The notes under the pieces are model-generated. The model had not been told where the DNA came from. It saw only the letters and a list, made by a program, of their open reading frames with translations, and ran no database searches. A program made the translations under genes and the position numbers. This document shows, in pieces, positions 40,316 to 59,389 of a stretch of DNA of 64,000 bases (positions are counted from its first letter, which is position 1; each line of letters starts with the position of its first letter). The stretch is from the NCBI GenBank assembly GCA_037445895.1, contig JBBIJO010000003.1:14109-78108 (forward strand), in the 5' to 3' direction. The stretch comes from Ignavibacteria bacterium (GTDB taxonomy: Bacteria > Bacteroidota > Ignavibacteria > Kapaibacteriales > UBA2268).

Positions 40316-40332
40316 TTTAAGGAGGTTAAGAT

Positions 40333-44086: not shown

Positions 44087-45424
44087 ATGAGATTGTTGTT
44101 TAAAGTAATATTTTTATTTTACTCCGTTAATTTATTATTTGGTTTCGATTCGGATACTTTGAGTAGGGTACCACGGAAACCGATAGTAAGATTTATTAGA
44201 ATTTTCGGGGAAAAGTCCGAACAAAATCCTCCAATACTGATTCTTAGAACCTCAAATTCCGGAATTAACCCAGAAATAGGCGATGCCCATCTTGTTGTTG
44301 AATTCGATGTTGATTCGAGAGTTCCTCCGAATTTGTATGCTCGGTTTTTTCATTGTTCATACGATTGGAATGAAGATGAGAACATTTTTCTCAACGATAT
44401 AACTGCACATCGCACAAGTAACATTTTTTGGGAGTCTGCCCCTATTAATTCTAAGTATTATTCATTTCGCGGGCGAATAACTATTCCCAATGAGCAGGTT
44501 AAATTCAGTTTTGCCGGAAATTGGAAAATTAAGCTTTTCGATTATGAGAATCCCGATTTGCCGTTAGCCGAAGCCAGATTCTTTATTGTTTCGCCACTTG
44601 TTGATGGTAAAATGACATTTTATTCCGATTTTTATAAACCCGAAAAGAATGTTACAGCTTCGGCTTTCGACGTAGAAGTGTCTGTTTTTAGTTCCAAGAC
44701 TTCAAATATCATAGAAAACAATCTTCATAGTGTGATACTTTACAGAAACCATCGTTGGAGCGAACCTTTTGTTATCTCTCAGTTTACTTTCAATGCTTTT
44801 AACAACAACCTTTTTCGGTATAAGTTCGAAACACAGATATATGGTTTTGTTTCGATGGGAAAAGTCTTTAGAATTGATGGTATTCCAGCAGAAAACGGTT
44901 ATCGGGTATTAAATCTTTCCGATTTAGCTCTTTATCCTTCGATATCAAGTGTTGTAAGAATGCCACTTTCCGATATTCGCCGCCGCGGAAGCTACATCGA
45001 ATCGCACGACGATGGTGCAATGATTACAACCTTTATAACTCCTAATTATGATGATTACGTTTATATGGAATTTATTCTCGACCCCGAAGGATGGAAAACC
45101 GATAACGATGTGTTTGTTGTAGGTTCTTTTAACAATTGGGAACCCACTCGCGATTGGCAAATGTATTACGATGATAAAAACAGGTTGTATAGGCTTCGTC
45201 AATGGGTTCGGCGCGCTCGCCATAATTATCTTTATGCAACTGCAAGAGTCAATTCCGACAATAGTACAATCGAGAAAATTGCCTTCGATGAATTCGAAGG
45301 AAATACTGTTACAAGTGGGCATACCTTTATAGCTTTCGTGTATTACCGAAATACAGGTTACGGAGGTTACGACGAAATAGTAGGTGTTGTTGCTGGCTCT
45401 TATTTCTCGTCCACTTTTCGTTAA
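44087..45424 (+). CDS. Hypothetical secreted protein with C-terminal CBM48/AMPK-beta-like glycogen-binding motif.
   Basis: Signal peptide. The C-terminal segment VFVVGSFNNWEP...YRLR matches the GSFNNW signature of CBM48/E-set domains. No catalytic motifs were seen. Confidence 0.45.
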   Translation: MRLLFKVIFLFYSVNLLFGFDSDTLSRVPRKPIVRFIRIFGEKSEQNPPILILRTSNSGINPEIGDAHLVVEFDVDSRVPPNLYARFFHCSYDWNEDENIFLNDITAHRTSNIFWESAPINSKYYSFRGRITIPNEQVKFSFAGNWKIKLFDYENPDLPLAEARFFIVSPLVDGKMTFYSDFYKPEKNVTASAFDVEVSVFSSKTSNIIENNLHSVILYRNHRWSEPFVISQFTFNAFNNNLFRYKFETQIYGFVSMGKVFRIDGIPAENGYRVLNLSDLALYPSISSVVRMPLSDIRRRGSYIESHDDGAMITTFITPNYDDYVYMEFILDPEGWKTDNDVFVVGSFNNWEPTRDWQMYYDDKNRLYRLRQWVRRARHNYLYATARVNSDNSTIEKIAFDEFEGNTVTSGHTFIAFVYYRNTGYGGYDEIVGVVAGSYFSSTFR

Positions 45425-45426
45425 TT

Positions 45427-46722
45427 CTATTTGGAATGTAATCTTTTGCTTTTGCTTGATTCATACTCGAGTTGGAGGATACGAATCTCTTGGTCAAGTA
45501 GTTTTTGATCGCGCCGAGCCATCACTATCTTTGCAGTTTCAATTGAGCGTTCAAAGCTGCCTAATGTAGAATTACTCCTATCGCCTCCCCACGTAAACGA
45601 TGGAATATATTTAGGTAATAGCCCGCTATGGTAAATGTTGCAACAAATTCCAGCAATAGTTCCTGAATTGAATGATGTATTGATGGCAGTTTTAGTATGG
45701 TCTCCGCAAATTAACCCCAAAAATGTTCGTCCTGTATCGAAACTCTCGGTTTCAATACGTACCGAAATTGATTCATAAGTATTTTTTAAATCCGATGTTG
45801 TTGTTCCAGCGCCAATATTGACCCATTCTCCAATGTAAGAATGCCCCAGGAACCCGTAATGTTGCTTATTTGAATAGGCTTGTAGTATCGAATTTTCGAT
45901 TTCACCCCCGACTTTACAGACTTCACCAATAGAAGTTCCTTGAAATATAGTAGAGCCGGATTTGATATTTGTTCTATTGCCAATAAACACGGGCCCTTCT
46001 ATGAAAGTAAATGGTTGAATTTGAACTCCCTCCCCAAGAATTATGGGACCCTTTGACGCATCGAGAACTACATTAGTAGAAATATATGAATCTTTACCAA
46101 TTGTTATTAAGTCTTCATTTATGAGTGAAATGCTGTTGCGTTTTAGTTGTTCGAAGTCAGCAAAATTGTCAAAAAATTTGAAATCTTCTGCAATACAATC
46201 AGAATTGTATTCAATGGCATCCCAAAGAAAGTTTATGATTCTTGGGGGCTCGATTGAAGTTTTTGGGAGTTTGTTAGAATATTTCTCAAGAATTAGCGGG
46301 AAGAATTCCAGATCGAAATCAGTAGGATTAACAATATCGTTTCGAGCAAGATATAAAGCAAGTGGAATGCCATTGGTTGCGAAAACAACCGATTTTGTTA
46401 GTTGTTGGGTAGCAAGGAATTTTTCGTAAGCTTCGAATAAGGACTGCCAAAATTTTTCTGTTGGCAAAATGCCTGCATTGATTATTAATACGTTGCCAAA
46501 CACTACATTGTCGGTATCGATGTTGAACTTTTTTAGAAACAACTCGAGGGTATTTTTCCGGTGGGAATGGAATAATATCTTTGCAGAGGGGAATCGACGT
46601 TGAATTTTTTCGAAGATACGAAAAGCTCCACACCGCACTTCCCACTGCATATGAAGGATACTGAAAGGATATAGGCTTCGAACATATTCATTCTCGAAAA
46701 TGAGAATATAATCGGGCGACAT
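45427..46722 (-). CDS. Putative sugar-nucleotidyltransferase with left-handed beta-helix (hexapeptide-repeat) domain, GlmU-like.
   Basis: N-terminal NTP-transferase-like region. C-terminal hexapeptide repeats (IGKDSYISTNVVL, IGNRTNIKSGSTI, IGEVCKVGGEIENS, IGEWVNIGAGTTT). Confidence 0.55.
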   Translation of the reverse strand: MSPDYILIFENEYVRSLYPFSILHMQWEVRCGAFRIFEKIQRRFPSAKILFHSHRKNTLELFLKKFNIDTDNVVFGNVLIINAGILPTEKFWQSLFEAYEKFLATQQLTKSVVFATNGIPLALYLARNDIVNPTDFDLEFFPLILEKYSNKLPKTSIEPPRIINFLWDAIEYNSDCIAEDFKFFDNFADFEQLKRNSISLINEDLITIGKDSYISTNVVLDASKGPIILGEGVQIQPFTFIEGPVFIGNRTNIKSGSTIFQGTSIGEVCKVGGEIENSILQAYSNKQHYGFLGHSYIGEWVNIGAGTTTSDLKNTYESISVRIETESFDTGRTFLGLICGDHTKTAINTSFNSGTIAGICCNIYHSGLLPKYIPSFTWGGDRSNSTLGSFERSIETAKIVMARRDQKLLDQEIRILQLEYESSKSKRLHSK

Positions 46723-47147
46723 TATTCTGCTTTAATTAGTTCGACTTCAATTATAAGTTTTGAATTTGGCGGTATATTCCGGAATGAACGATTTCCAAAA
46801 CCTAGTTCAGGCGGGATTATTAATTTCCTTTTTCCTCCAACTCTCATTGTTGCTACCCCTTCTTCGAGTCCTTCGATTGCATCTTTATTACCAAGGATAA
46901 ATGACATTGGAATTCCGCTTTTGTATGTGTCTTCGATTATAGTCCCATCCTCGGTTTTCATAATAAAGTTAATTTTAACTTTCTGTTTTGTTCTTGGGAT
47001 TTCTCCACTTCCAATGAAGATGTCGTAATATTGTAAGCCCGAAGGCGTTGTAATCCATTTTTCCGATTCTTTGCTTACTTTGGAAGAACTACAAGAGAAA
47101 AGAAAGATTAAAATTGTTCCCATTAGTAGCAAACTAAATGTTTTCAT
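46722..47147 (-). CDS. FKBP-type peptidyl-prolyl cis-trans isomerase, secreted/lipoprotein.
   Basis: Signal peptide plus LFSCSS. FKBP core: GIPMSFILGNKDAIEGLEEGVATMRVGGKRKLIIPPELGFG...IPPNSKLIIEVELI. Confidence 0.8.
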   Translation of the reverse strand: MKTFSLLLMGTILIFLFSCSSSKVSKESEKWITTPSGLQYYDIFIGSGEIPRTKQKVKINFIMKTEDGTIIEDTYKSGIPMSFILGNKDAIEGLEEGVATMRVGGKRKLIIPPELGFGNRSFRNIPPNSKLIIEVELIKAE

Positions 47148-47173
47148 ACTTCCTCCAATCAGTCTAGATAAAT

Positions 47174-48787
47174 TTATATTGCAATTTTTGATTTCCTGAA
47201 TTTGAGCGCTGCTTTGATAAAACTTATGAACAGAGGAGCTCCGGTTACCGCTCGCGATTTGAGTTCAGGATGGAATTGTGTTCCAACAAACCAAGGATGA
47301 TCACTTAGTTCAATCATTTCGACGAGTTTACCATCGGGTGAAAGCCCGCTCATAACCATTCCATTTTGCTCTAACAATTCACGATACTTATTGTTTACTT
47401 CGTAGCGGTGTCTGTGTCTTTCATAAATCAGCTCCGAATTATATGCTTGGTGGGCAATTGTATGAGGTTGAATTGCACAGGGGTATTGTCCAAGCCGCAT
47501 TGTTCCGCCTTTGTTGCGTATGGATTTTTGCTCTTCCATTAAATCAATAACGTTATGGGAAACTTTTTTCTCGAATTCTGTTGAATTAGATTCTGGCAAA
47601 TTACAAACATTCCTGGCAAACTCGATTATTGCACACTGCAAACCGAGGCAGATTCCGAAGAAAGGTATTTTTCTTTCTCGAACAAATTTAATTGCATTGA
47701 TTTTACCTTCGATGCCTCTTTTCCCGAATCCTGGGCCTACAAGAATTCCATCCAGATGTCCGAGAAGTTCCTCGCAATTTTCTTCGGTGATTAACTCCGA
47801 GTCTATCAATTCAACATCGACAGCGGTATTATTTATCGAACCAGCATGAATAAAAGCTTCGAGTATGCTCTTGTATGAATCCCGATAGCGAACATATTTG
47901 CCAACAAGTCCAATTGTTACCTTATGTTGGGGGCTTTTAATTTTGCGAACGAAGGATTTCCACTCTTCAAAGTCAAGGCCGTTTGGTTTGATATTAAGTT
48001 TTCGTAATACTATACGGTCCATATTATGCCTTAACATAATTAGAGGAACTTCGTAGATTGTTTCGGCGTCGGGTAGGTCGATAACCGATTCTTCTTCGAC
48101 GTTACAGAATAAAGCAATTTTCGATTTGACGTCTTTCGAAAGTCGGGCTTCGCTACGGCATAAAATAATATCTGGAACAATCCCATGTTCCATTAAATCT
48201 TTAACCGAATGTTGGGTTGGTTTAGTTTTCAATTCTCCAGCACTTTTAATAAAAGGCACATAAGTGAGAATAATGTTTATTGCATTTTTTGAACCACGTT
48301 CGATAGCAAATTGACGAGCAGCTTCGAGGAATGGCAAAGATTCAATATCTCCAACAGTTCCGCCAATTTCAACAATTACGAACTGATATTTTCCATCGAA
48401 AACCGAAATCCTGCGTTTAATTTCATCGGTTATGTGGGGGATAACTTGCACAGTCTTTCCTAAATATTCTCCTTTTCTTTCTCTCATAATGACTGTGTAG
48501 TAAACTTGCCCTGCGGTAGTGTTATTGTCCTTATTTAAAGAGCAACCAAGAAATCGCTCGTAATGGCCTAAATCAAGATCTGTTTCTGCTCCGTCGTCTG
48601 TAACATAAACTTCGCCGTGTTGGAACGGATTCATTGTCCCGGGATCGACATTGATGTAAGGGTCTAATTTCATAATTGTGACAGAAAAACCACGTTGCTT
48701 TAAAAGCAAACCTAATGATGCTGCGGCTATCCCCTTCCCGAGCGATGAAACTACACCCCCATAAATAAAAATGTAATTCGTAATCAC
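47174..48787 (-). CDS. pyrG: CTP synthase.
   Basis: N-terminus YIFIYGGVVSSLGKGI. Glutamine amidotransferase triad region GICLGLQ. Product is 537 aa. Confidence 0.9.
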   Translation of the reverse strand: MITNYIFIYGGVVSSLGKGIAAASLGLLLKQRGFSVTIMKLDPYINVDPGTMNPFQHGEVYVTDDGAETDLDLGHYERFLGCSLNKDNNTTAGQVYYTVIMRERKGEYLGKTVQVIPHITDEIKRRISVFDGKYQFVIVEIGGTVGDIESLPFLEAARQFAIERGSKNAINIILTYVPFIKSAGELKTKPTQHSVKDLMEHGIVPDIILCRSEARLSKDVKSKIALFCNVEEESVIDLPDAETIYEVPLIMLRHNMDRIVLRKLNIKPNGLDFEEWKSFVRKIKSPQHKVTIGLVGKYVRYRDSYKSILEAFIHAGSINNTAVDVELIDSELITEENCEELLGHLDGILVGPGFGKRGIEGKINAIKFVRERKIPFFGICLGLQCAIIEFARNVCNLPESNSTEFEKKVSHNVIDLMEEQKSIRNKGGTMRLGQYPCAIQPHTIAHQAYNSELIYERHRHRYEVNNKYRELLEQNGMVMSGLSPDGKLVEMIELSDHPWFVGTQFHPELKSRAVTGAPLFISFIKAALKFRKSKIAI

Positions 48788-48835
48788 TTTCCTTTAATAT
48801 TTGTTTTTAAAATAAATTCAAATATAAAAAAGTAA

Positions 48836-48858
48836 GGGGTAGTTTTAAAGACTATCCC
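48836..48858 (-). terminator. Candidate intrinsic terminator downstream of leuD.
   Basis: ggggtagt-tttaaag-actatccc forms an 8-bp stem with one G-U pair. On the minus strand it is followed by a T-rich tract (ttacttttttatatttgaattt). Confidence 0.4.
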
Positions 48859-48869
48859 TAAATTAATTT

Positions 48870-49364
48870 TTACTTTTGCGATTGGAGAAGCAATTTCCTT
48901 GTGTAGGGAATTAATCCACCTGCTTCGATTATTGCTAAACGCGATTTGTGATGCGGAATCGTCTTAAATTCTTTCTTTATGGTTTTGTTAATAATCTTGT
49001 CGGACAAAAGTTCGAGTTCGTCACCAATGCTTGCTTCGATTTCCGGACAAATAATTGTTGACAATCCTAGATTAATGCTATTTTGGAGAAAAATCCTTGC
49101 GAAATTTTTTGCGACAACGCGTATATCGTAACCCTTCAAGGTGGACACTGCTTGTTCGCGCGAAGAACCACAACCAAAGTTTTTTCCTGCCACGATTACA
49201 TCTCCGGACTCGAACCTATTTTCGGTGAGTAGTTGATGTAGTTCTTTAATATCGCCAAATGCATATTGTGGAGTTTCGCTCGGCAGAACTGTTGCCATAT
49301 ATCGCCCTGGATAAATAATATCTGTTGAGACATCGTCACCGAGAACATATATTACTCGTGCCAT
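48870..49364 (-). CDS. leuD: 3-isopropylmalate/(R)-citramalate dehydratase small subunit (type-2, archaeal-like LeuD).
   Basis: 164 aa with MARVIYVLGDDVSTDIIYPGRY and GKNFGCGSSREQA. Confidence 0.8.
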   Translation of the reverse strand: MARVIYVLGDDVSTDIIYPGRYMATVLPSETPQYAFGDIKELHQLLTENRFESGDVIVAGKNFGCGSSREQAVSTLKGYDIRVVAKNFARIFLQNSINLGLSTIICPEIEASIGDELELLSDKIINKTIKKEFKTIPHHKSRLAIIEAGGLIPYTRKLLLQSQK

Positions 49365-49365
49365 A

Positions 49366-50655
49366 TTAGCCTCCTTTTTTAGGATTTGTAATATACCCTG
49401 TTAAAGCACTTGCAGCAGCCACACTTGGAGAGCAAAGGAAAACTTCCGAATTAGGATTTCCCATCCTTCCTTTGAAATTTCTATTTGTTGTCGATAGAGC
49501 AACTTCGCCGTCGCCTAAGGCTCCTTGGTGCACGCCGAGACAAGGTCCACATCCTGGATTTACGATTACTGCCCCTGATTCCATCAACTCATACAGATAG
49601 CCTTTTGCCATTGCTTCGCGATAAATACGTCCAGATGCAGGAAAGATAAGCATACGAACTCCCTTTGCTATCTTTTTCCCTTTAAGAATTTTGTATGCCG
49701 TTGCTATATCTTCTAGTCTTCCGTTTGTGCAAGAACCCAAAACTACCTGATTTATTTTTATTCCCTCCACATCGCTAATTGGTTTCACATTATCAACAGC
49801 GTGTGGACAAGCAATTTGGGGTTCTAGATTCGACCCATCTATATAAATTTCTTGGCAGTAGTGGGCATCTGGGTCAGGTTGGAATAATTCGATATCTTCT
49901 TGAACACCAGCAATTTCTTGCAGGTAGCGAATTGTTTCTTCGTCCGATGGAACAATACCCGAAGTTGCGCCTGCTTCAACAGCCATATTACAAATTGTTA
50001 ATCTTCCGGACATACTCATTATTTTGATTGTTTCGCCGTGAAACTCAATGACTTTATAATTGGCTCCTTCTGCTCCCAAAATACCTATTATACGAAGAAT
50101 CAAGTCTTTTGGTTCAACGAAGTCTTGAAAATTTCCGTTTACAACTATTTTGATTGTTTCGGGAACTTCGACGTTCAGAATTCTGCCAATAGCCCAAACA
50201 GATGCCATTTCGGTTGCTCCAATTCCGAAAGCAAAAGAGCCTAAAGCTCCGTGGCTTGTCGTATGGCTATCGGTTCCAACAACAACGTAACCAGGTCGGA
50301 CGTAGCCATATTCAGGTAAAATCTGATGGCAAATTCCCATCTCGTTGCCGCGAATATCGTGAAACTTAGTAATTTTTTGTTGTTCTATGAATTCTCTGAC
50401 TTTTTTCTGATTGGAGGCGGTTTTTGAACTTTCTGCTGGGACTCGATGGTCGAAAATAATTGCAATTTTTTGTGGATTCCACACCCGAGGTTCAAGATTT
50501 GTTCCCCTATAAATTTCTAAAAATTGATTAATAACAAGTGCTGCATTTTCGTGCGACATAGCTAAATCAATACGAGGTTCAACAATGTCTCCGACTTGAA
50601 CCTCGTTTGTTCCGATTGCGCGACTTAATATCTTTTGGACAACTGTTTGTTTCAT
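49366..50655 (-). CDS. leuC: 3-isopropylmalate/homoaconitate dehydratase large subunit (type-2 LeuC, aconitase family).
   Basis: 429 aa. Aconitase-family Fe-S ligands GSCTNGR and VNPGCGPCLG. N-terminus QKILSRA...IDLAMSHE. Confidence 0.8.
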   Translation of the reverse strand: MKQTVVQKILSRAIGTNEVQVGDIVEPRIDLAMSHENAALVINQFLEIYRGTNLEPRVWNPQKIAIIFDHRVPAESSKTASNQKKVREFIEQQKITKFHDIRGNEMGICHQILPEYGYVRPGYVVVGTDSHTTSHGALGSFAFGIGATEMASVWAIGRILNVEVPETIKIVVNGNFQDFVEPKDLILRIIGILGAEGANYKVIEFHGETIKIMSMSGRLTICNMAVEAGATSGIVPSDEETIRYLQEIAGVQEDIELFQPDPDAHYCQEIYIDGSNLEPQIACPHAVDNVKPISDVEGIKINQVVLGSCTNGRLEDIATAYKILKGKKIAKGVRMLIFPASGRIYREAMAKGYLYELMESGAVIVNPGCGPCLGVHQGALGDGEVALSTTNRNFKGRMGNPNSEVFLCSPSVAAASALTGYITNPKKGG

Positions 50656-50669
50656 CTTTGTATTCCTTA

Positions 50670-51863
50670 TTAAACTACACCTTCTTTGCGTAAAAGTGCA
50701 AATTCATTTTTATCAATACCAATTAATGCGAGAATTTCTTCTGTGTGTTGCGATAGCTTTGGTGGGGAAGTTTGGACCATTCCAGGTGTTTTTTCAAATT
50801 TTGCAGTCATATTGAAGACTTGGATTTCGCCGATTCCTTCTACTTCGACCGTAGCGAATGTATTACGATGCCGAATTTGTTGCTGATTCAACGCAGACTC
50901 GAGAGAAAGTATTTCCCCCGCTGGAATACCATTTTTATTCAGTAGTTCAACCCAAATGGAAGTTGGTTTTTCCATTAATTTTTTTTCTATTAGTGGGTTT
51001 AATTCGTAACGATTTTTTTTCCGAATATCTCTTTCTTTGAATCTTGTATCTTCTTTAAGATGCGACAATCCAAGCAAATCGGCAAGGGTTTCCCATTGTT
51101 CTTGTTTGTTGGCTGCGATGTTGATGTATCCATCGAGGGTTTTGAACGTCCCCGATGGGGCTGCGGTAAAATTATCGTTGCCGAGCAACTCTGGGTGCTG
51201 TCTTCCAAGCATAAGGTTTGCGACAACCCAACCGAGAAGAGGCATAATGGAATCGAGTAGAGCAATGTCGATAAACTGACCTTCGCCGGTTTTTTCGCGA
51301 TAGAAAAGAGCGGCAACAGTAGCAAATGCAGCGTTTAGTCCCCCGACTGTATCGCAAACAGGGAAACCGCATCGTAATGGATTCAATCGTTTGTCGCCAT
51401 TGATTGCCATTACGCCGCTTAGACCCTGAATGATTTGATCGTAAGCGGGCTTAAATGCATCGGGGCCTGTTTGCCCAAACCCCGAAATTGCGCAATAAAT
51501 TAAACGAGGATTAATTATTTTTAACGCATTGTATCCAATTCCCAGGCGTTCCATAACACCAGGCCGAAAATTTTCAACAACAACATCGGAAATTTTCACA
51601 AGTTTCCGAAAGATTTCCTTGCCACGTTCATCTTTTAAATTTAGCGTAACAGATTTTTTGTTTGAATTTTGAGCAAGGAAACTAGTCCCCATCAACATTT
51701 TGTTGTATTCTGTAACACAGCCAAGTTTGCGTGCAAGGTCTCCTTCGGTTGGATTTTCAATTTTGATAACTTCGGCTCCGAGCCAAGCTAAATGCAAAGT
51801 AGCAAAAGGTCCCGACAATACATTCGTTAAATCAAGAACCCTTATTCCTTCGAGTATTTTCAT
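50670..51863 (-). CDS. Family III CoA-transferase (CaiB/BaiF family).
   Basis: N-terminus MKILEGIRVLDLTNVLSGPFATLHLAWLGAEVIKIE is diagnostic for the family. Product is 397 aa. Confidence 0.75.
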   Translation of the reverse strand: MKILEGIRVLDLTNVLSGPFATLHLAWLGAEVIKIENPTEGDLARKLGCVTEYNKMLMGTSFLAQNSNKKSVTLNLKDERGKEIFRKLVKISDVVVENFRPGVMERLGIGYNALKIINPRLIYCAISGFGQTGPDAFKPAYDQIIQGLSGVMAINGDKRLNPLRCGFPVCDTVGGLNAAFATVAALFYREKTGEGQFIDIALLDSIMPLLGWVVANLMLGRQHPELLGNDNFTAAPSGTFKTLDGYINIAANKQEQWETLADLLGLSHLKEDTRFKERDIRKKNRYELNPLIEKKLMEKPTSIWVELLNKNGIPAGEILSLESALNQQQIRHRNTFATVEVEGIGEIQVFNMTAKFEKTPGMVQTSPPKLSQHTEEILALIGIDKNEFALLRKEGVV

Positions 51864-52761
51864 TTTCCCTCTTAGTTTTATAAATATACCCAGGTAAATC
51901 TTTTATAAAAAAACCACTTGCATATTTTGAAACGGCAATGATTTTCGAAATATCGATATCTTGGCGAAATCCCATTCTTTGAAGCATAAATACAAAATCT
52001 TCGGTGCAAACATTCCCAGCAGGTTGCTTGGTGAAAGGACAACCCCCCAATCCCCCAAAAGCGGTTTCGACATATCGAACGCCTAATTTCAGTGCAGTAT
52101 AAACATTTAATAGTCCCATACCATAAGTGTTATGGAAATGACAAGCAAATTGAGCATTTGGGTTCATCTCCATCAGTTTAGCATACATACGCTCGACTTT
52201 GGTTGGGTATGCCATTCCTGCAGTGTCGGCAAGACTGATGTTTTGTATCCCATTTTTAAAATACTCTTCGACAATTTGGAATACTCGTTTTTCTGGTATC
52301 TCGCCTTCGAAACCACAACCGAAAGCCGATTGAACCGAGACTTGAAGCTTCTTTCCTTCTTTCTTAACAACTTTTGCCATTTCGAGAATTCTGTCTAATG
52401 CCTGCAACGATGTCATTCCAGTATTTTTCGATGAATGTGTATCGCTTGCAGAAACACCCATACATATCATATCAACATTTACTGCCAAGGCTCGTTCCAA
52501 GCCCTTTTCATTAAGAACAAGGGCAGAGAAAATAGGCTTTTGCGGTTCAGCTTTGGTTCGAGAGAATAACTCGAACAAATCGTCTGTGTCTGCCATTTGA
52601 GGGACTTTTTGGGGATTGACAAACGAACCGAGTTGAATTATATCGATGTTTGATTGAATTAATAATTTAACCCATTCTTCCTTTGTAATTGTTGGAACCG
52701 GTTCGCTTTCCATTTGTAAGCCATCTCGCAGCCCAACCTCGTGAATTATCACTTTTTCCAT
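51832..52761 (-). CDS. HMG-CoA-lyase-like (DRE-TIM metallolyase) enzyme. Candidate hydroxymethylglutaryl-CoA or citramalyl-CoA lyase.
   Basis: N-terminus IIHEVGLRDGLQ (compare EVGPRDGLQ of HMG-CoA lyases). Product is 309 aa. The 3' end overlaps the CoA-transferase start by 32 nt. Confidence 0.7.
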   Translation of the reverse strand: MEKVIIHEVGLRDGLQMESEPVPTITKEEWVKLLIQSNIDIIQLGSFVNPQKVPQMADTDDLFELFSRTKAEPQKPIFSALVLNEKGLERALAVNVDMICMGVSASDTHSSKNTGMTSLQALDRILEMAKVVKKEGKKLQVSVQSAFGCGFEGEIPEKRVFQIVEEYFKNGIQNISLADTAGMAYPTKVERMYAKLMEMNPNAQFACHFHNTYGMGLLNVYTALKLGVRYVETAFGGLGGCPFTKQPAGNVCTEDFVFMLQRMGFRQDIDISKIIAVSKYASGFFIKDLPGYIYKTKRENENTRRNKGS

Positions 52762-52776
52762 AAAAGCTCTGCATTA

Positions 52777-53910
52777 TTAGATGTAATTGGCTATTGCTTG
52801 TGCCATTTCTATGGTTGTGTTCGAACCTCCCATATCGTAGGTTCGAATCTTTCCATCTTCAATAACCCTTGCAACTGCATTTTCAATTTGCTGGGCTTTT
52901 TCGGTTTCTCCGAGCCATTCCAACATCATTTTTGCAGCAAGGATTGTTGCCGTTGGGTTGACTTTATACATTCCGGCATATTTGGGTGCCGAACCATGCG
53001 TTGGTTCAAACACTGCGAGTTTTTCTCCGATATTTCCTGAACAGCCGAAACCAAGGCCACCTACCATTTGGGCGCACAAATCAGAAATAATATCGCCATA
53101 TAAATTTGGAGCAACTAAAACTTCGTAATTCAGTGGATTTTTTAGTAACCACATTGTTATTGCATCGACATTTGCTTCGTCTGCTTCAATTTCGGGATAA
53201 TCGCGGGCTACCTCGCGTGCTATTTCGAGGAACAAACCATCGCTTGCTCGAACAACATTCGCTTTATGAATAATAGTAACTTTTTTATGTCCAAATTGCT
53301 TTGCATATTCAAATGCTGAACGAACTATCTTTTCGGAAGATTTCTTTGTGTTGATTTTACAGGAAATTGCAAATTCATCTGAATTCAGTTTGGCGAAAGG
53401 AGTAAAATTAGGCGATAACTTTGTCAATGTGGATTTTAGTTCTTCGGGAACGGGATTGAATTCTACCCCAGCATATAAATCCTCGGTGTTTTCGCGAAAA
53501 ACAACTAAATTAATGTTTTCCTTATAATTCAACGGATTACCTTTGTATGCTTTGCAAGGGCGTAAGCATACATAAAGATTAAACATTTGTCGCATTCTGA
53601 CAATCGGCGAACGGTAGATTAATCCTTTTCCACGAAGTTCAGGGCGAAGTTCCGATTCGGCGGATTTCACAGGTTTGGATGTGATAGCACCAAAAAGTGC
53701 GGCGTCGACGTTTCTCAGTAGTTCGATTGTTCGTTGGGGTAGGGCATCGCCTTCGTTACACCAGAACTCCCAACCAATATCTCCGTGGATGTAATTGGCG
53801 TTGAGTTTAACTTTTTCGAGAACTATTTTGGTTGACTCCATAACGTCGTTGCCAACACCATCGCCCGGAAGCCAAGCAATTCGGTAGTGATTTTTCTTTT
53901 GACTAGCCAT
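52777..53910 (-). CDS. Isocitrate/isopropylmalate dehydrogenase family protein (beta-decarboxylating dehydrogenase).
   Basis: IAWLPGDGVGNDV and NLYGDIISDLCAQMVGGLGFGCSGNIG motifs. The call is at family level. LeuB versus IDH versus homoisocitrate DH cannot be decided by eye. Confidence 0.7.
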   Translation of the reverse strand: MASQKKNHYRIAWLPGDGVGNDVMESTKIVLEKVKLNANYIHGDIGWEFWCNEGDALPQRTIELLRNVDAALFGAITSKPVKSAESELRPELRGKGLIYRSPIVRMRQMFNLYVCLRPCKAYKGNPLNYKENINLVVFRENTEDLYAGVEFNPVPEELKSTLTKLSPNFTPFAKLNSDEFAISCKINTKKSSEKIVRSAFEYAKQFGHKKVTIIHKANVVRASDGLFLEIAREVARDYPEIEADEANVDAITMWLLKNPLNYEVLVAPNLYGDIISDLCAQMVGGLGFGCSGNIGEKLAVFEPTHGSAPKYAGMYKVNPTATILAAKMMLEWLGETEKAQQIENAVARVIEDGKIRTYDMGGSNTTIEMAQAIANYI

Positions 53911-54043
53911 AATTCTTTTATTTTTCTGTTGAACAAGAGCAACACAAAATTACTCAAAAATCACCTCTAAAGCAAAGGTAGCCGAACATTGAAAATCCCT
54001 TGCAGAATATCTTTCCTTTATCTTAATTTACATTTTTTGAAAT

Positions 54044-55720
54044 TTGGATATGGAAAAAAAAGTAAAAGGCAAACCCAAACGTTTCTTTTTTAAGGAAACA
54101 ATTATAATTGCATTGGCATTATTTGTGCTTTATTTCCCGTCTCTAAAGTATCAATTCGTATGGGACGATAAAGAAATTTATATTAACGAAGTAAATTTAC
54201 CACGAACGGAAACCATTTCGGCAATTCCAAACTATTTCGTGCCTAAAAAAGACAAGATGTATATTCCAATTACTTATACTTTTTGGAACATAATATTCAA
54301 TATTGAGAGCACCGACGATAGAGTTTACAATCCATATTCATTTCATTTTTTCAATTTGGTTTTGCACATAATAAACTCGATACTTATCTTTTTAGTGTTG
54401 TTACGACTGTTAGGCTCACGTAGGTTTGCTTTTTTTGGAGCGATGGTTTTTGCTTTACATCCAATACAAGTGGAATCGGTCGCTTGGATTTCCGAAGCTC
54501 GAGGCTTGCTTGCGGGAACATTTGGATTTTCTGCAATGCTTTTATACTTAAAAAACAAAATAGGTCCATTTCGCAATTACTTAATTCCTCTGCTTTTGCT
54601 TTGTTCGATGTTATCGAAGCCGAGTGGAATTGTTTTTCCATTGATTTTAATAGCACTTGATGGTTATTTAAATGGTTTTACACCGTTCAAAAAGCTTTTA
54701 CAGCGTAATATTTTCATATTGATTCTTGTGATACCGTTTATTCTTTTGGCAATGTATGGTGAATCGAGTCGGACAATTGAGTTTTCCGCTCCAATGTGGA
54801 TACGCCCCCTTTTGTGGCTAAACGCAATAGGATTTTATTTGTTTAAAATTTTTATTCCAATAAACTTTTCTGCGTGTTATGGTCTGACATATAGTTATTT
54901 AGTGGCCAACGTATTCAACTTTTTCGCAATATTAATTTTTGTTGGCGTTTTGTTTGTAATGGTTCTTTTGAAAAAAAAGGAATTTTGGTTTGCGATGATA
55001 ATTTTTGTTTTGGGATTTCTCCCAGTATCAAATCTTCTAACCTACTATTATCAATACTGGTCGACAGTGTCGGATAGATATGTTTATTTTTCGATGTTTG
55101 CAATTGCATTTGGTCTTTCTTTTATTGTTAAAGAATACTTTAGCAAGTATTTCTATTATATTTTTGGTATTGTTGGAATAATTTTGTTCTTTTTTTCTAA
55201 AATCGAGTTGCCAAAATGGGAGAATGAAAGAACTTTATGGAGTGATTGTATCGAAAAATACCCTAATCGCATTCCACATCCTTATTTAGGACAAGGACTA
55301 ATATTCCAAAACGACGGGAACTATCCAAGAGCTCTCGACTATTACAATAAAGCTATTGAGTTGGATTCAAATTATTACTTTGGTTATTACAATCGTGGAA
55401 ATTTATACTATGACTTAAAGCAGTTCACTAAGGCAATCGAAGACTATTCGAGAGTTCTAAAAATTAACACTAAATATCTTAATGCCTATGTAAATCGTGG
55501 ATTATGCTTGATGAATCTCGGACAATACGAGGAAGCAATAATCGATTTTACAAAGGCAATAGAATTGGATTCTAAGCAATTTGATGTTTACTATGAACGT
55601 GCTAATTGTTTTATCGAAATTGGGATGAAAGAGAAAGCTGTCGAGGATTTGAAATTTTGTTTGAAACTTAATCCAAATTTTGAACAAGCAAAATCACTTT
55701 TGTATAAAACCTTGAAGTAA
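54044..55720 (+). CDS. Polytopic membrane protein with C-terminal TPR repeats (TMTC/PMT_2-like putative glycosyltransferase).
   Basis: Around 10 TM helices over 380 aa, then 4-5 TPR units (YFGYYNRGNLYY, AYVNRGLCLMNLGQYEEAI, VYYERANCFIEIG). Confidence 0.55.
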   Translation: MDMEKKVKGKPKRFFFKETIIIALALFVLYFPSLKYQFVWDDKEIYINEVNLPRTETISAIPNYFVPKKDKMYIPITYTFWNIIFNIESTDDRVYNPYSFHFFNLVLHIINSILIFLVLLRLLGSRRFAFFGAMVFALHPIQVESVAWISEARGLLAGTFGFSAMLLYLKNKIGPFRNYLIPLLLLCSMLSKPSGIVFPLILIALDGYLNGFTPFKKLLQRNIFILILVIPFILLAMYGESSRTIEFSAPMWIRPLLWLNAIGFYLFKIFIPINFSACYGLTYSYLVANVFNFFAILIFVGVLFVMVLLKKKEFWFAMIIFVLGFLPVSNLLTYYYQYWSTVSDRYVYFSMFAIAFGLSFIVKEYFSKYFYYIFGIVGIILFFFSKIELPKWENERTLWSDCIEKYPNRIPHPYLGQGLIFQNDGNYPRALDYYNKAIELDSNYYFGYYNRGNLYYDLKQFTKAIEDYSRVLKINTKYLNAYVNRGLCLMNLGQYEEAIIDFTKAIELDSKQFDVYYERANCFIEIGMKEKAVEDLKFCLKLNPNFEQAKSLLYKTLK

Positions 55721-56989: not shown

Positions 56990-58288
56990 TTATCCCATCA
57001 TTGCAAATAATGGAAATTTGCTTGTAAATTCTTGAACTTCTGCTTTTATTTGGGCAAGGATTTCGTTGTTTTCAATGTTACTTATGACTTTGTCGATGAA
57101 ATCAGCGATTGTGCGCATCTCGGCTTCTTTCATTCCACGCGTAGTCATTGCTGGCGTTCCAATCCTGATACCCGATGTGATAAGTGGAGGTTGAGTGTCG
57201 AATGGGACAGCATTTTTATTTACTGTTATGCCAGCTTTATCCAAAGCAATTTCTGCTTGTTTACCAGTAACTCCTTTGTTACGTAAGTCTATAAGCATAA
57301 GATGATTATCGGTTCCATTGCTAACAAGGTTGTAATCTTTTTCGAGCAACGACTGGGCAAGTGCTTTGGCATTCTTAATAACTTGTTGAATATACCTATC
57401 GAAAGTATCGGTTAAACATTCTCCAAACGCAACAGCCTTTGCTGCAATAACGTGCATTAATGGTCCACCTTGAATGCCTGGCATAACCCAAGAATCAATG
57501 ACTTCGCTCATTTTTTTTACTCTTCCCGATTTCGGTGCAACAATTCCGAACGGGTTTTCGTAATCTTTTCCGATAAGAATGATTCCGCCGCGTGGACCTC
57601 GAAGTGTTTTGTGTGTAGTGCTAGTAACGGCATGGCAATAAGGCATTGGGCTTTGCAAATAACCTTTTGCTATTAATCCTGCTGGATGGGCAATATCGGC
57701 GAAAAGGAATGCTCCAATTTTATCGGCAATTTCACGGAAAGATTTGTAGTCGATTTCACGTGGATAGGAAGATGCACCAACGGTAATCATCTTTGGTTTA
57801 TGCTTCAAAGCTAATTCCTCGACAATGTTCATATCGATTCGGCCAGTATCTTTGTCCAATTCGTATGGGATAAAATTGAATAATCTTCCCGAGAAATTCA
57901 CTGGTGAACCGTGAGTAAGATGACCTCCGTGGGCTAGACTTAACCCCATAACAGTATCGCCAGGCTTAAGGAAAGAAAAATAGATTGCCATATTAGCTTG
58001 GCTACCGCTATGTGGTTGAACATTGGCATATTCTGCTCCAAAAAGCTTTTTAACTCTTTCGCGAGCAAGATTTTCTACAACATCAACCCATTCACAACCA
58101 CCATAGTAACGAGCTCCTGGGTATCCTTCTGCATATTTGTTTGTTAGCACCGAACCTTGAGCTTCTAATGTTGAAGGCGAAACGAAATTTTCGCTTGCGA
58201 TTAGTTCTATTTTTTCATGCTGCCGTTTGTATTCATTTACTAATGCTTCGTGGACTTCCGGGTCTGAATTTTTAACTAAATTATACAT
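56990..58288 (-). CDS. glyA: Serine hydroxymethyltransferase.
   Basis: [38 protein letters not shown] and PLP Lys region [14 protein letters not shown]. The start is placed at Met 58288. Confidence 0.9.
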
Positions 58289-58383
58289 TCGATTTCCTTT
58301 TGAAAAAACATCAAAAATCAAACTTATGTAAAGATTAGGAATTATCAAAGAGCTTAGTCCGGAATTTGATGCCCCATCTGTTT

Positions 58384-59373
58384 TTAAGCTATTCCTTTTG
58401 CCATCAAACTACAAATACAGGCAACATTAATCATATCGTCCACGCTGCAACCCCTTGATAAATCACAATATGGTTTGCTAAGACCTTGAACAATAGGTCC
58501 AATGGCTTGTGCCCCACCGAGTCGTTCGGTAAGTTTGTAACCGATATTTCCGGAATTGAGATCGGGGAAAATAAGAACATTGGCTTTTCCAGCAACTGGC
58601 GAACCTTTGCATTTACGTTCTCCAATCGAGGGAATCAATGCAGCATCGGCTTGCATTTCACCATCGACGTTTATTCCAGGATTTTTCTCTTTTACGATTT
58701 GTGTTGCCTTAATAACTTTATCTACTAATGGATGCTTGGCACTACCTTTGGTCGAAAACGACAACATAGCCACGTAAGGGGTCAAGCCGGTTACAGCGTT
58801 AAAGTTGATTGCCGAAGTTATTGCAATATCTGCCAATTGTTCGGCTGTGGGGTCGGGATTTACCGCACAGTCCGCAAAGCAAAGAAGCTTGCCATCCAAT
58901 ACCATTATAAAATAACTGCTAACAATCGAGATATTCGGAGCAACACCTACGGTGTAGATTGCGGCTCGAATTATATCCCCAGTTGCAGAAATATTCCCGC
59001 CAACAACTACTTGGACTTCATTGGCATCGAGCATCATCCCGGCATAATAGATTGGATTAGCCGTGAGTATACTTGCTTGTTCGGGGGTCATACCTTTTGC
59101 TTTCCGTTTTTCATAAAGTCGTTCGCTATATAAAGTAAAGTTCTCGGATTTTTCTGGTTCAACAATCTTTATTCCTTCAATTGAAATTGAACCAGATTTT
59201 GCTAATTCGGATATTGCATTTGAATTACCAACAAGAATTGGTCGGGCAATTTTATTCTCTTTAAGGAATAGAGCAGTTTGTAGTGTTCTAATGTCTTCTG
59301 CATCGGGAAAAGCAATTTTGTAATTTAACCCTTTTGTGTTTCTTCTTATACTTTCGATGAATGTTAAGCTCAT
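58384..59373 (-). CDS. pta: Phosphate acetyltransferase (Pta, short form) or phosphate butyryltransferase.
   Basis: 329 aa in the PTA_PTB family. It is immediately downstream of ackA. Confidence 0.75.
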
Positions 59374-59389
59374 ATATCACCTATTTAGT

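Follow-up and report, generated by a model that had tools for sequence, protein, structure and literature searches.

Several characterised enzymes resemble parts of the locus described here. In Chloroflexus, an HMGL-type R-citramalyl-CoA lyase is paired with a family III succinyl-CoA:citramalate CoA-transferase. Biosynthetic homoisocitrate dehydrogenases (HICDHs) and isopropylmalate dehydrogenases (IPMDHs) are NAD-dependent, while SUGCT and succinate--glutarate CoA-transferase are enzymes of lysine catabolism. The operon in question combines a dehydrogenase (DH), a lyase (LY), a CoA-transferase (CT) and the two subunits LeuC (LC) and LeuD (LD), and lies in a 64-kb window, which is the whole stretch of DNA analysed (Table 1). 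On balance, we think it probable that the operon encodes a thioester-conserving, synthase-free homocitrate/homoaconitate/homoisocitrate module, most likely catabolic and forming the last part of lysine degradation. We infer the substrates from motifs and gene context, and the CoA donor and reaction direction given below are likewise putative.

Table 1. Features of the five-gene operon and its borders
Feature	Position	Strand	Details
DH, NADP-type beta-decarboxylating, homoisocitrate-dehydrogenase-like	52777-53910	-	377 aa; Pfam Iso_dh 1.5e-90
LY, HMGL-type (DRE-TIM) acyl-CoA lyase	51832-52761	-	309 aa; Pfam HMGL-like 2.5e-42
CT, family III (CaiB/BaiF) CoA-transferase	50670-51863	-	397 aa; Pfam CoA_transf_3 1.2e-119
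LC, type-2 LeuC/HacA-like large subunit, aconitase-family isomerase	49366-50655	-	429 aa; Pfam Aconitase
LD, type-2 LeuD/HacB-like small subunit	48870-49364	-	164 aa; Pfam Aconitase_C
Putative Bacteroidetes-type operon promoter TTTG-N20-TAATTTTG	53945-53976	-	pattern match only
Terminator-like hairpin and T-run, leuD/pyrG interval	48835-48859	-	stem + T-run

The initial annotation placed five co-directional genes on the minus strand, and open reading frames and Pfam matches (E-values from 1e-13 to 1e-119 across the five proteins) confirm them. LY and CT overlap by 32 nt, as first described (51832-51863), with the CT start overlapping the LY stop, because the C-terminus of LY is extended by ~9 aa relative to its orthologues. 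The spacing between leuC and leuD is 1 nt (TAA, t, ATG) rather than the 2 nt originally given. Sequence comparison indicates intact catalytic residues in all five proteins, each of which also carries an invariant signature particular to it. None of the five reaches an equivalog-level (substrate-specific) NCBIfam cut-off, which counts against the homocitrate reading. A scan of 35 larger ORFs in the window turned up no leuA, cimA, ilv or citrate synthase gene; this set excluded ORFs 3581-4060, 26323-30573, 33402-37358, 44087-45424, 47174-48787, 54044-55720 and 56990-58348. The promoter pattern matches the window 10 times against 2.46 expected, with 0 of 100 shuffles reaching 10, and the match assigned to the operon stops 35 nt short of the start codon of DH; a sigma-70 scan gave nothing above chance. 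At the other end, the hairpin has an 11-bp stem (AGGGATAGT...ACTACCCCT) followed by TACTTTTTTAT on the minus strand, with terminator-like sites over the region as a whole not above chance.

LY passes the cut-off of the HMG-CoA lyase subfamily PRK05692 (272.8 bits; cut-off 246), and its best PDB matches are the HMG-CoA lyases 6nds and 1ydo. Models of LeuA, CimA and HCS score no higher than 73 bits (cut-offs 413-950), and the synthase C-terminal domain is absent from LY. Residues R12, D13, H208, H210, C241 and N250 are retained. However, E72 of human HMG-CoA lyase, the Glu of the DRE motif, corresponds to Gln43, and N46 to Met; the Glu-to-Gln change occurs in every LY orthologue with a readable motif, and other active-site positions also differ from those of four solved or characterised HMG-CoA lyases. 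By its NCBIfam score LY belongs to the HMG-CoA lyase subfamily, but it makes up an orthologous group of its own. The nearest solved relative of CT is human SUGCT (9br6, 2.9e-78), and its top NCBIfam match is succinate--glutarate CoA-transferase (284.7 bits; cut-off of 750 missed). Its catalytic Asp is D171 (Frc D169), and among 44 orthologues conservation is 90% or higher at 212 of 397 columns.

Among loci with enough flanking sequence, 30 of the 46 from genomes and 23 of the 33 from metagenomes have the order DH-LY-CT-LC-LD. Carriers include Kapabacteria, Ignavibacteria, Bacteroidota and Acidobacteriota/Aminicenantia, among others, and the full cluster is present in a MAG labelled I. album (L022). 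Since this order recurs while the flanking genes vary between loci, the cluster is far beyond chance, and the fortuitous juxtaposition once considered fails on synteny kept across phyla. The data support an earlier suggestion of a CoA-thioester variant at the synthase step: in a conserved operon that resembles a leucine-biosynthetic set minus the initial enzyme, a short HMGL-type lyase and a family III CoA-transferase take the place of the synthase in a 2-oxoacid elongation module. It is scarcely credible, then, that the genes share no pathway and that LY is an ordinary leucine-catabolic HMG-CoA lyase beside LeuBCD-like genes, with CT serving acetoacetate or HMG. The PRK05692 score would suit such an arrangement, as would the 10 of 46 loci in which LY and CT occur without DH, LC or LD nearby; against it stand the conserved order amid unrelated surroundings, the active-site differences of the LY group, the lack of adjacent liu/MCCase genes, and an unrelated C-C lyase that holds the same operon position elsewhere (see below).

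All catalytic residues of DH align with those of E. coli Icd. The top NCBIfam match is AksF2 homoisocitrate dehydrogenase (344.8 bits; cut-off of 540 missed). Its recognition helix, YRSPIVRMRQ (Y99 to Q108), is identical in 77 of 80 metagenome orthologues, the remaining three having one position changed each. This helix matches those of the HICDHs of S. pombe (YSSPIVALRK) and T. kodakarensis (YRSLILTLRK), in contrast to S-x-N in the IDHs compared and G-x-L-L in LeuB/DmlA, in a comparison set that did not include the archaeal-type IPMDH motif. The IDH-defining Asn is replaced by Ile in DH orthologues (Val in one), as in all three solved HICDHs, and two residues further on lies a conserved positive charge, normally Arg but Lys in L183 and one metagenome orthologue. 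Counting against the homocitrate reading, the position of Arg85 in Thermus HICDH has no counterpart in DH. The key Ile persists in an engineered Thermus HICDH that shows IPMDH activity, so DH may also accept hydrophobic substrates. The cofactor motif (K310, Y311, KVNP, Y358) is that of E. coli Icd, whereas LeuB, DmlA and the NAD-IDH references have an NAD-type motif.

LC passes the cut-offs of PRK00402 (564 bits; 385) and hacA_fam (530 bits; 385.7) and carries the Fe-S cysteine motifs GSCTNG and CGPC. Its best equivalog is HacA_Meth (496 bits; cut-off of 550 missed), ahead of LEU2 (475 bits; cut-off 610). LD passes LEUD_arch (123 bits; cut-off 109), with HacB2 (118), HacB (114) and leud (113) all below their cut-offs. 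The top-ranking equivalogs of DH (AksF2), LC (HacA) and LD (HacB2) are thus all homo(iso)citrate enzymes. The specificity loop of LD, I-Y-P-G-R-[YF]-M-A-T-V-L-P-x-E-T, is kept in the LY+CT-type orthologues examined and differs in the divergent L183. It is private to this group, unlike the loops of MjHacB (YLRTTDP), MjLeuD (YLVYTKP) and P. horikoshii (YNLTKDP), and the Arg by which M. jannaschii HacB recognises the distal carboxylate is missing, another point against the homocitrate reading.

The same residues bear on whether the operon is an alternative citrate synthase or citrate-cleaving system in a reversible TCA segment, composed of citryl-CoA lyase, succinyl-CoA:citrate CoA-transferase, aconitase and NADP-IDH. 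Citrate is the carboxy analogue of HMG, DH has the NADP residues and clasp insert of E. coli Icd, and in several genomes DH is found alone and housekeeping-like. We regard this reading as very unlikely, however, given the loss of the S-x-N Asn present in every IDH compared, an LD loop without an Arg equivalent to aconitase Arg580, and the complete conventional TCA cycle reported for these lineages.

Five different arrangements bring lysine genes into the module. In L170 the order is LKR-SDH-DH-X-LC-LD, where X is a PrpB/ICL-family lyase, LKR matches the LKR domain of human AASS (4e-78) and SDH matches saccharopine reductase (6e-79). In L176, an Opitutaceae MAG, the order is ALDH-aminotransferase-DH-X-LC-LD, and the ALDH is apparently ALDH7-like (51% identical to what we take to be the ALDH7A1 sequence). 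L183 has ALDH-aminotransferase-DH-X-carbonic anhydrase-LC-LD; the carbonic anhydrase carries a signal peptide, which counts against the homocitrate reading. In L052 and L059 an ALDH-LAT-CT operon is convergent on LY, with LAT (lysine 6-transaminase) passing TIGR03251 (646 bits; cut-off 520.8), and L042 has ALDH-MFS-LY-CT-RR-LC-LD. Also counting against the homocitrate reading, lysine genes are adjacent in only ~7 of ~90 informative loci, and there are none near the operon in the 64-kb window. Amino-acid or peptide catabolic genes do recur as neighbours in other genomes.

In the DH-X-LC-LD loci, the PrpB/ICL-family C-C lyase occupies the exact place of LY and CT. Its catalytic residues are intact, R241 and R270 of PrpB (whose roles we assume) are lost, and it is of the CoA-independent type. 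This non-orthologous displacement indicates that the job of LY and CT is C-C cleavage of the 2-substituted malate.

The commonest neighbour of the cluster is a VorB-type 2-oxoacid:ferredoxin oxidoreductase (OFOR), adjoining it in 18 loci and at least three arrangements (alpha subunit 536 bits; cut-off 399). As the name VorB suggests branched-chain 2-oxoacids, it counts against the homocitrate reading, although the enzyme could equally oxidise the product 2-oxoglutarate to the CoA donor succinyl-CoA. It accords with an interconversion of 2-oxoisovalerate plus acetyl-CoA and 2-oxoisocaproate via 2-isopropylmalyl-CoA. In auxotrophs for branched-chain amino acids without leuA and ilv, this would make leucine from valine or isobutyrate, or shorten leucine to the valine skeleton. 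Hydrophobic residues at DH positions 115/116 (Ile, Val) and the absence of Arg from the LD loop agree with this, as do the reports of leuBCD without leuA or Val/Ile synthesis in Kapabacteria (PMC6338057), of I. album lacking ilv/leu genes and having VOR (PMC3362086), and of Leu/Val interconversion in anaerobes (cited in PMC9201399). We nevertheless hold it doubtful: the recognition helix of DH reads S-P-I-V, the HICDH form, in place of G-x-L-L; DH lacks the NAD-specific Asp; scores fall far short of the equivalog cut-offs for LEU2, leud and leuB; branched-chain aminotransferase or leucine genes never occur in the operon, against five arrangements with lysine genes; and OFOR specificity is unreadable from sequence.

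The initial annotation had proposed a citramalate or methylmalate branch in isoleucine, itaconate or C5-dicarboxylate metabolism, and the Chloroflexus pair speaks for it. Pyruvate and acetyl-CoA would be interconverted with (R)-citramalyl-CoA, citramalate, 3-methylmalate and 2-oxobutyrate, to make or dispose of the last, and citramalyl-CoA is the smallest departure from HMG-CoA. Possible sources of 2-oxobutyrate are a methionine-gamma-lyase (MGL)-like gene upstream in 13 loci and a Ser/Thr-dehydratase-family gene upstream of LY in 2 loci. The former association, however, is one arrangement in one lineage, with a score of 317 bits against an MGL cut-off of 549.7, and the latter PALP protein scores best as beta-hydroxyaspartate dehydratase. 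With an HICDH-like DH helix, lysine enzymes as co-operonic genes and the ilv genes required for isoleucine reported absent in I. album, this is an unlikely, if live, minority rival; of the original interpretation, the CoA-thioester variant stands and the citramalate proposal has lost ground.

The HICDH-like helix of DH, together with the lysine-to-aminoadipate genes that join the operon, points instead to homocitrate and 2-oxoadipate in the catabolic direction. Lysine would be converted to 2-aminoadipate and 2-oxoadipate by enzymes encoded elsewhere, with entry through lysine 6-transaminase or LKR/SDH and then aminoadipate-semialdehyde dehydrogenase. DH would reductively carboxylate 2-oxoadipate with CO2 and NADPH to homoisocitrate, which LC/LD, in a homoaconitase role, would convert via cis-homoaconitate to homocitrate. 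CT, as an acyl-CoA:homocitrate CoA-transferase, would place CoA (probably from succinyl-CoA) onto the acetate-derived carboxyl, and LY would act as a homocitryl-CoA lyase, releasing acetyl-CoA and 2-oxoglutarate.

The reverse direction is suggested by the replacement of an irreversible synthase with a lyase and transferase, or with an ICL-type lyase, by the NADP(H)-type motif of DH, by the catabolic nature of the co-operonic enzymes (LAT, LKR/SDH, ALDH), and by the carbonic anhydrase inside one operon (L183). Run forwards, from 2-oxoglutarate and acetyl-CoA to 2-oxoadipate, the same chemistry would serve alpha-aminoadipate (AAA)-type lysine synthesis without the diaminopimelate (DAP) pathway. 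The AAA pathway draws on these same enzyme families, the module is expected to run both ways, and I. album, whose labelled MAG has the full cluster, is reported without lysC, asd and dapABD (PMC3362086). Synthesis is still distinctly improbable: associated genes are not LysW/X/Z/Y/J/K or aminoadipate reductase, a lyase or ICL-type enzyme is a poor synthase substitute, and leuBCD-like genes without leuA, presumably the same module, are reported from Kapabacteria whose DAP pathway is complete (PMC6338057).

No published description of such a route of lysine breakdown was found in open-access text. If the catabolic homocitrate reading is true, lysine would be broken down through a reversed aminoadipate half-pathway that takes 2-oxoadipate to 2-oxoglutarate and acetyl-CoA, and the module is most likely the first half of the alpha-aminoadipate pathway, run backwards.

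The five genes of the operon, which encode a dehydrogenase (DH), a lyase (LY), a CoA-transferase (CT), and LeuC-like (LC) and LeuD-like (LD) proteins, are co-directional on the minus strand and lie exactly where the initial annotation had placed them. The 32-nt overlap that it described between LY and CT was also recovered, while the gap between LC and LD is 1 nt rather than the 2 nt claimed. The overlap arises because LY is ~9 aa longer at its C-terminus than its orthologues; it amounts to 4 nt in L001 and 14 nt in L003 (two of the numbered loci with orthologous genes), and in most genomes the two genes are separated by 30–60 nt. The lack of leuA noted for this region holds as well, since no leuA, cimA, ilv or citrate synthase gene was found among the 35 larger ORFs scanned in the window. 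Lysine genes are likewise absent from the window. The exact LY sequence has no record in the contig collection, and close homologues carry the labels Kapabacteria or Kapaibacteriota.

Positions of the operon genes, flanking signals, and other features in the window and in numbered loci with orthologous genes.
Feature	Sequence	Position	Strand	Details
DH, dehydrogenase	window	52777-53910	minus	377 aa; Pfam Iso_dh, 1.5e-90
LY, lyase	window	51832-52761	minus	309 aa; Pfam HMGL-like, 2.5e-42
CT, CoA-transferase	window	50670-51863	minus	397 aa; Pfam CoA_transf_3, 1.2e-119
LC, LeuC-like	window	49366-50655	minus	429 aa; Pfam Aconitase
LD, LeuD-like	window	48870-49364	minus	164 aa; Pfam Aconitase_C
LY/CT overlap	window	51832-51863	minus	32 nt
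Putative Bacteroidetes-type promoter, TTTG-N20-TAATTTTG	window	53945-53976		pattern match; ends 35 nt before DH start codon
Other promoter pattern sites	window	725-757; 24584-24614; 58319-58349; six more		
Hairpin, then T-run	window	48835-48859		between LD and pyrG
pyrG/FKBP/nucleotidyl-transferase block	window	45427-48787		
pyrG/FKBP/nucleotidyl-transferase block	L002	3872-7212		
Cytochrome and sulphur-transport genes	window	37531-41523	plus	multihaem cytochrome c, cytochrome b561-type membrane protein, two YeeE/YedE-like genes
Protoglobin gene and MarR-family regulator	window	24760-26000	minus	adjoining
Serine hydroxymethyltransferase-like ORF	window	56990-58348		from translation
Phosphotransacetylase-acetate kinase pair	window	58384-60634	minus	
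Long ORFs	window	12926-15244; 26323-30573; 33402-37358; 41708-43786		692–1416 aa
DH alone	L097, L103, L109, L120, L130, L147, L168	~9001-10100		
X, PrpB/ICL-family lyase	L119	1563-2504		
X	L166	3816-4748		
X	L171	1159-2091		
X	L170	~4091-5020		
X	L176-L178, L182, L183	10001-10933		
Beta-carbonic anhydrase	L183	10972-11694		inside operon
Four-subunit OFOR	L061	3347-6222		
Four-subunit OFOR	L035	3553-6350		
Four-subunit OFOR	L018	12915-15381		

The candidate promoter upstream of DH is one of 10 matches in the window to the pattern TTTG-N19-21-TAnnTTTG, against 2.46 expected, and several of these matches lie just 5′ of ORF starts. Taken as pattern matches, they suggest that the organism uses FCB-type sigma-A promoters. 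Scans for sigma-70 promoters and for terminators gave no excess over shuffled expectation. An Rfam scan of positions 48000-55000 (E ≤ 1) returned no T-box, riboswitch or leader, so the effector is not revealed in this way. Elsewhere in the window, the phosphotransacetylase-acetate kinase pair lies downstream of the serine hydroxymethyltransferase-like ORF, and the long ORFs at 12926-15244 and 41708-43786 have no Pfam match.

The five genes form a conserved unit. A genome scan with LY as the query and one genome per species yielded 80 loci, and a metagenome scan with DH as the query yielded 80 further loci. The order DH-LY-CT-LC-LD is complete in 30 of the 46 genome loci with enough flanking DNA, the others holding LY and CT only (10), LY alone (4) or CT-LC-LD (2), and in 23 of the 33 metagenome loci with 4.3 kb or more of downstream sequence. 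The carriers bear the labels Ignavibacteria (among them L022, a MAG labelled I. album), Kapabacteria, Bacteroidota, Acidobacteriota, Aminicenantia and Calditrichia, together with one Spirochaetia MAG. When flanking ORFs were clustered, the five families alone recurred broadly, and the surroundings varied by lineage. The recurrence of the order amid varied surroundings bears out the view that the genes belong together; a chance juxtaposition, which would make the neighbouring genes functionally unconnected, is contradicted by it and is exceedingly improbable. Median identities to the window proteins are 74% for DH, 72% for CT, 70% for LC, 60% for LD and 57% for LY, and 212 of the 397 columns of CT are at least 90% conserved over 44 orthologues. 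No full-length LeuA-like match was found in the 84 loci scanned (L001–L084).

Parts of the unit and its relatives also occur in other settings. The window's pyrG block is syntenic with that of L002; in this distant FCB genome, LY and CT are the only operon genes nearby. DH stands alone, with an identical recognition helix, at a further set of loci where the other four genes are absent within the ~4–9 kb flank on each side and a PepD-type dipeptidase often adjoins it. DH paralogues on Collinsella, Legionella and Pusillibacter replicons have unrelated gene contexts.

A second form of the operon bears on the cleavage step. In DH-X-LC-LD loci, the position of LY and CT between DH and LC is held by X, a 310-aa protein of the PrpB/ICL family. 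That two unrelated solutions share one place in the operon implies that LY and CT serve to cleave a C–C bond of the 2-substituted malate formed by LC and LD. X scores 222 bits against the prpB model (cut-off 354) and retains both the Mg ligands and the catalytic loop KRCGH; T212, R241 and R270 of PrpB are replaced by Met, Met and Phe. In PrpB, these three residues are taken to contact succinate at its distal carboxylate, and their loss would then mean that X releases a simple acid, e.g., acetate. The family comprises more than 6000 proteins at E ≤ 1e-40 and is 77–96% identical across Chloroflexi, Thermoleophilia and Opitutaceae labels. Its homologues are automatically named methylisocitrate lyase, 2,3-dimethylmalate lyase or oxaloacetate decarboxylase.

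All five proteins of the window look catalytically competent from their residues, and none is a standard member of any equivalog-level family tested. LY passes the HMG-CoA lyase subfamily model NCBIfam PRK05692 (272.8 bits, cut-off 246) and fails every LeuA, CimA and homocitrate synthase model, with a best score of 72.8 bits against a cut-off of 517; at its length it lacks the synthase C-terminal domain. Its R12, D13, H208, H210, N250 and C241 align with the lyases of human, P. aeruginosa, B. subtilis and A. baumannii, in positions that we take to be the catalytic and metal-binding residues of the human enzyme (Arg41, Asp42, His233, His235, Asn275, and Cys266 of the GLGGCP loop). Four solved HMG-CoA lyases and E. 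coli LeuA have Glu in the DRE signature (human Glu72) where LY has Gln43, and human Asn46 is Met in LY. Every LY orthologue with a readable motif has this Gln, with or without the other genes beside it. In CT, D171 is the catalytic Asp of family III, aligned with D169 of E. coli Frc and conserved in the orthologues; CT scores 284.7 bits against the succinate-glutarate CoA-transferase model NF052585 (cut-off 750).

LC and LD pass the broader models PRK00402 (564 bits, cut-off 385) and LEUD_arch (123 bits, cut-off 109), respectively, and LC has the three Fe-S cysteines, in the motifs GSCTNG and CGPC. Both fall below the equivalog cut-offs for isopropylmalate isomerase (LC 475.5 bits against 610.65 for LEU2; LD 113 against 245.85 for leud) and for methanogen homoaconitase (LC 496 against 550 for HacA; LD 118 against 230 for HacB). 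Homoaconitase models rank first for the two proteins, ahead of isopropylmalate isomerase. Orthologues from LY+CT-type loci conserve the specificity loop of LD, IYPGR[YF]MATVLPxET, and the divergent LD of L183 has a different one. The YMATV segment of the conserved loop differs from YLVYTKP in M. jannaschii LeuD, YLRTTDP in M. jannaschii HacB and YNLTKDP in P. horikoshii. The position of M. jannaschii HacB Arg26 is Ala in LD. This Arg is not universal, since it is also missing from the P. horikoshii small subunit, whose gene we assume to be part of the AAA lysine cluster.

DH gives an indication of the substrate. Its catalytic residues (R107, the LRP Arg, the FRENTED Arg, a Tyr, a Lys and three Asp) align with those of E. 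coli Icd, and it shares with that enzyme the NADP determinants SAPKYAG, KVNP and TYD, as well as a clasp-like insert. The recognition helix, YRSPIVRMRQ, is identical in 77 of 80 metagenome orthologues, the remaining three differing at one position each. Among the references compared, the combination of Ser113 and Ile115 (E. coli Icd numbering) and the SPIV motif occur only in homoisocitrate dehydrogenases (HICDH): the helix reads YSSPIVALRK in the S. pombe enzyme and YRSLILTLRK in that of T. kodakarensis, while Thermus HICDH has GAIRYLRR, with an Arg85 whose position is Val in DH. By comparison, the sequence is RSLNVALRQ in E. coli Icd, YRSVNVTLRQ in the NAD-IDH 6lky, RGALLPLRK in E. coli LeuB and WGSLLKFRR in E. 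coli DmlA. The Asn of the S-x-N motif, which binds the gamma-carboxylate and is present in all IDHs compared, is Ile in DH orthologues (Val in one). Set against E. coli LeuB, DH also lacks the IPMDH helix G-x-L-L, the Glu before it and the Asp that confers NAD specificity. The residue after SPIV is Arg throughout, or Lys in L183 and one metagenome orthologue, and this invariance suggests that a positive charge plays a role there. DH scores 344.8 bits against AksF2 (cut-off 540).

Other substrates were considered in light of these motifs. A citrate version of the module, passing through isocitrate, citrate and citryl-CoA, was dropped because DH has Ile in place of the IDH Asn and the LD loop has no Arg; we regard it as highly improbable. 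The Ile-Val pair of DH and the Arg-less LD loop were first read as signs of a hydrophobic substituent, as in isopropylmalate or citramalate. That reading loses most of its force given the match to the HICDH helix and the absence of the Arg in P. horikoshii.

The extra metabolic genes that join the module are, by homology, those for converting lysine to 2-aminoadipate. For example, two ORFs overlapping by 4 nt precede DH-X-LC-LD on one strand in L170. For the first, the match is to human aminoadipate-semialdehyde synthase (AASS), in its LKR domain (8dda, 4e-78); for the second, it is to saccharopine reductase and to the SDH domain of AASS (1e5l, 6e-79). In L176, an Opitutaceae MAG, an ALDH and a class III aminotransferase accompany DH-X-LC-LD; the ALDH shares 51% full-length identity with what we take to be the sequence of human ALDH7A1, the aminoadipate-semialdehyde dehydrogenase, and 30% with E. 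coli GabD. L183 has the order ALDH, aminotransferase, DH, X, beta-carbonic anhydrase, LC and LD. LY faces a convergent ALDH-LAT-CT operon in L052 and L059, and LAT passes the L-lysine 6-transaminase equivalog (646 bits, cut-off 520.8). An orthologue of the L052 ALDH (60% identity) begins the L042 series ALDH-MFS-LY-CT-RR-LC-LD, where it takes the place held by DH in the otherwise collinear L044. Finally, the ALDH of L082, which is convergent on LY-CT-LC-LD, is 61.5% identical to that of L176. In plasmid annotations, records for the ALDH and the aminotransferase give generic names only. Together, these loci show five or six different arrangements; two of the loci are on metagenome contigs, and the others are in MAGs with the labels Opitutaceae (Verrucomicrobiota), Bacteroidetes, Ignavibacteria, Pseudomonadota and Hyphomicrobiales. 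Lysine genes are adjacent in ~7 of ~90 informative loci, which we infer to be far above expectation given the handful of lysine genes per genome.

The other recurrent neighbours are likewise genes of amino-acid or peptide catabolism. A four-subunit 2-oxoacid:ferredoxin oxidoreductase (OFOR), with an alpha subunit that passes the NCBIfam VorB model, adjoins the cluster at 18 loci in at least three arrangements (three loci are tabulated; 15 others are known). A methionine-gamma-lyase (MGL)-like gene is a neighbour at 13 loci in a single arrangement, and histidine ammonia-lyase, peptidases, an amino-acid permease and hydroxyproline genes also recur. Some of these neighbours would suit other substrates. 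An isopropylmalate version of the module would be in keeping with the VorB-type OFOR and with reports of lineages that have leuBCD-like genes but neither leuA nor Val/Ile synthesis (PMC6338057; PMC3362086), Kapabacteria among them (PMC6338057). A citramalate version could draw on the MGL-like and Ser/Thr-dehydratase-like neighbours and on the precedent of Chloroflexus Sct/Ccl. A plain alkylmalate model, built partly on the OFOR and MGL neighbours, was revised in view of the HICDH motifs and of the operons with lysine genes, and we consider the isopropylmalate and citramalate versions to be unlikely, one as much as the other.

The reading that we prefer, tentatively, is that the module runs the homocitrate half of the aminoadipate pathway in reverse. 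At slightly less than an even chance, it represents an undescribed, O2-independent form of lysine catabolism that would occur in at least five phyla and in two forms, one conserving the thioester through LY and CT and the other using a widespread PrpB/ICL-family homocitrate lyase. DH would convert 2-oxoadipate, CO2 and NADPH to homoisocitrate, which LC and LD would isomerize to homocitrate via cis-homoaconitate. CT would then transfer CoA from an acyl-CoA to homocitrate, and LY would cleave the resulting homocitryl-CoA to acetyl-CoA and 2-oxoglutarate. The latter product would re-supply the amino acceptor, which is used twice between lysine and 2-oxoadipate. More speculatively, the neighbouring OFOR may oxidise 2-oxoglutarate to succinyl-CoA, the likely CoA donor.

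Judging from the analogous reactions of isocitrate dehydrogenase, aconitase and citrate lyase, every step of this pathway should lie near equilibrium. Cleavage is the usual activity of ICL-family enzymes and of acyl-CoA lyases. The chain-shortening direction is favoured because enzymes of this cleaving type replace an irreversible synthase, because DH is of the NADP type, because the operon partners are catabolic, and because the L183 operon includes a carbonic anhydrase, though one with a signal-peptide-like N-terminus. A forward, biosynthetic homocitrate route would fit I. album, which is reported to lack the DAP pathway (PMC3362086), but these features argue for the opposite direction, and we judge it distinctly unlikely.

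If the lysine reading is correct, it would explain the ‘leuBCD without leuA’ genes of Kapabacteria, in lineages without branched-chain amino acid synthesis, and the presence of the same module in the Ignavibacterium album-labelled MAG. Glutaryl-CoA dehydrogenase and the O2-dependent HglS have roles in lysine breakdown; anaerobes would have a route from lysine to 2-oxoglutarate and acetyl-CoA that requires neither. 2-Oxoacid elongation modules would become reversible through the exchange of their synthase for a lyase and CoA-transferase or for an ICL-type lyase. Thousands of genes now named HMG-CoA lyase, isocitrate or isopropylmalate dehydrogenase, 3-isopropylmalate dehydratase or methylisocitrate lyase would need to be re-annotated. 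No published description of the cluster was found in open-access full text, and an earlier description may exist elsewhere.

Several known systems share parts of this design. The first half of the alpha-aminoadipate (AAA) lysine pathway, with homocitrate synthase, homoaconitase and HICDH (Thermus, Pyrococcus, fungi), has the same proposed intermediates, a LeuC/LeuD-type isomerase and an IDH-family dehydrogenase, and the DH helix resembles that of the S. pombe and T. kodakarensis enzymes. In contrast, the module has LY and CT or an ICL-family lyase in place of homocitrate synthase, an NADP-type DH and a proposed catabolic direction, falls below the equivalog cut-offs, and lacks Thermus Arg85 and M. 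jannaschii HacB Arg26. LeuABCD, CimA-LeuBCD and methanogen AksA/D/E/F employ the same isomerase and dehydrogenase families in the same three-step chemistry; the module differs from them in having no synthase, in scoring below the LEU and Aks equivalog cut-offs, and in its private specificity loops.

Reductive TCA citrate cleavage in Hydrogenobacter (IDH, aconitase, citryl-CoA synthetase, citryl-CoA lyase) follows the same logic of reductive carboxylation, isomerization, CoA activation and cleavage to acetyl-CoA and a 2-oxoacid one carbon shorter. However, its activation and cleavage enzymes belong to unrelated families, whereas the module would use CoA transfer without ATP, act on a substrate one methylene longer, and serve a catabolic rather than an autotrophic purpose.

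For the cleavage step itself, the nearest characterised relatives of LY and CT are human HMGCL and SUGCT, which belong to separate pathways; LY differs from HMGCL in the Gln that replaces the DRE Glu and in other active-site changes. The sole known precedent for an HMGL-type lyase acting with a family III CoA-transferase on a 2-substituted malate is Sct and Ccl of Chloroflexus aurantiacus, reportedly a succinyl-CoA:(R)-citramalate CoA-transferase and an R-citramalyl-CoA lyase. The substrate in that case is citramalate, and the pair is not known to be linked to LeuCD or a dehydrogenase. The DH-X-LC-LD form resembles DmdAB and Dml of nicotinate fermentation in Eubacterium barkeri, which pair a LeuCD-type enzyme (dimethylmaleate hydratase) with an ICL/PEP-mutase-family lyase for a substituted malate (2,3-dimethylmalate lyase), but it always includes an IDH-family dehydrogenase and is accompanied by lysine rather than nicotinate genes. 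By analogy, then, the module would work like the first half of the AAA pathway in reverse, with a cleavage step built like Sct/Ccl or, where X is present, like DmdAB/Dml.
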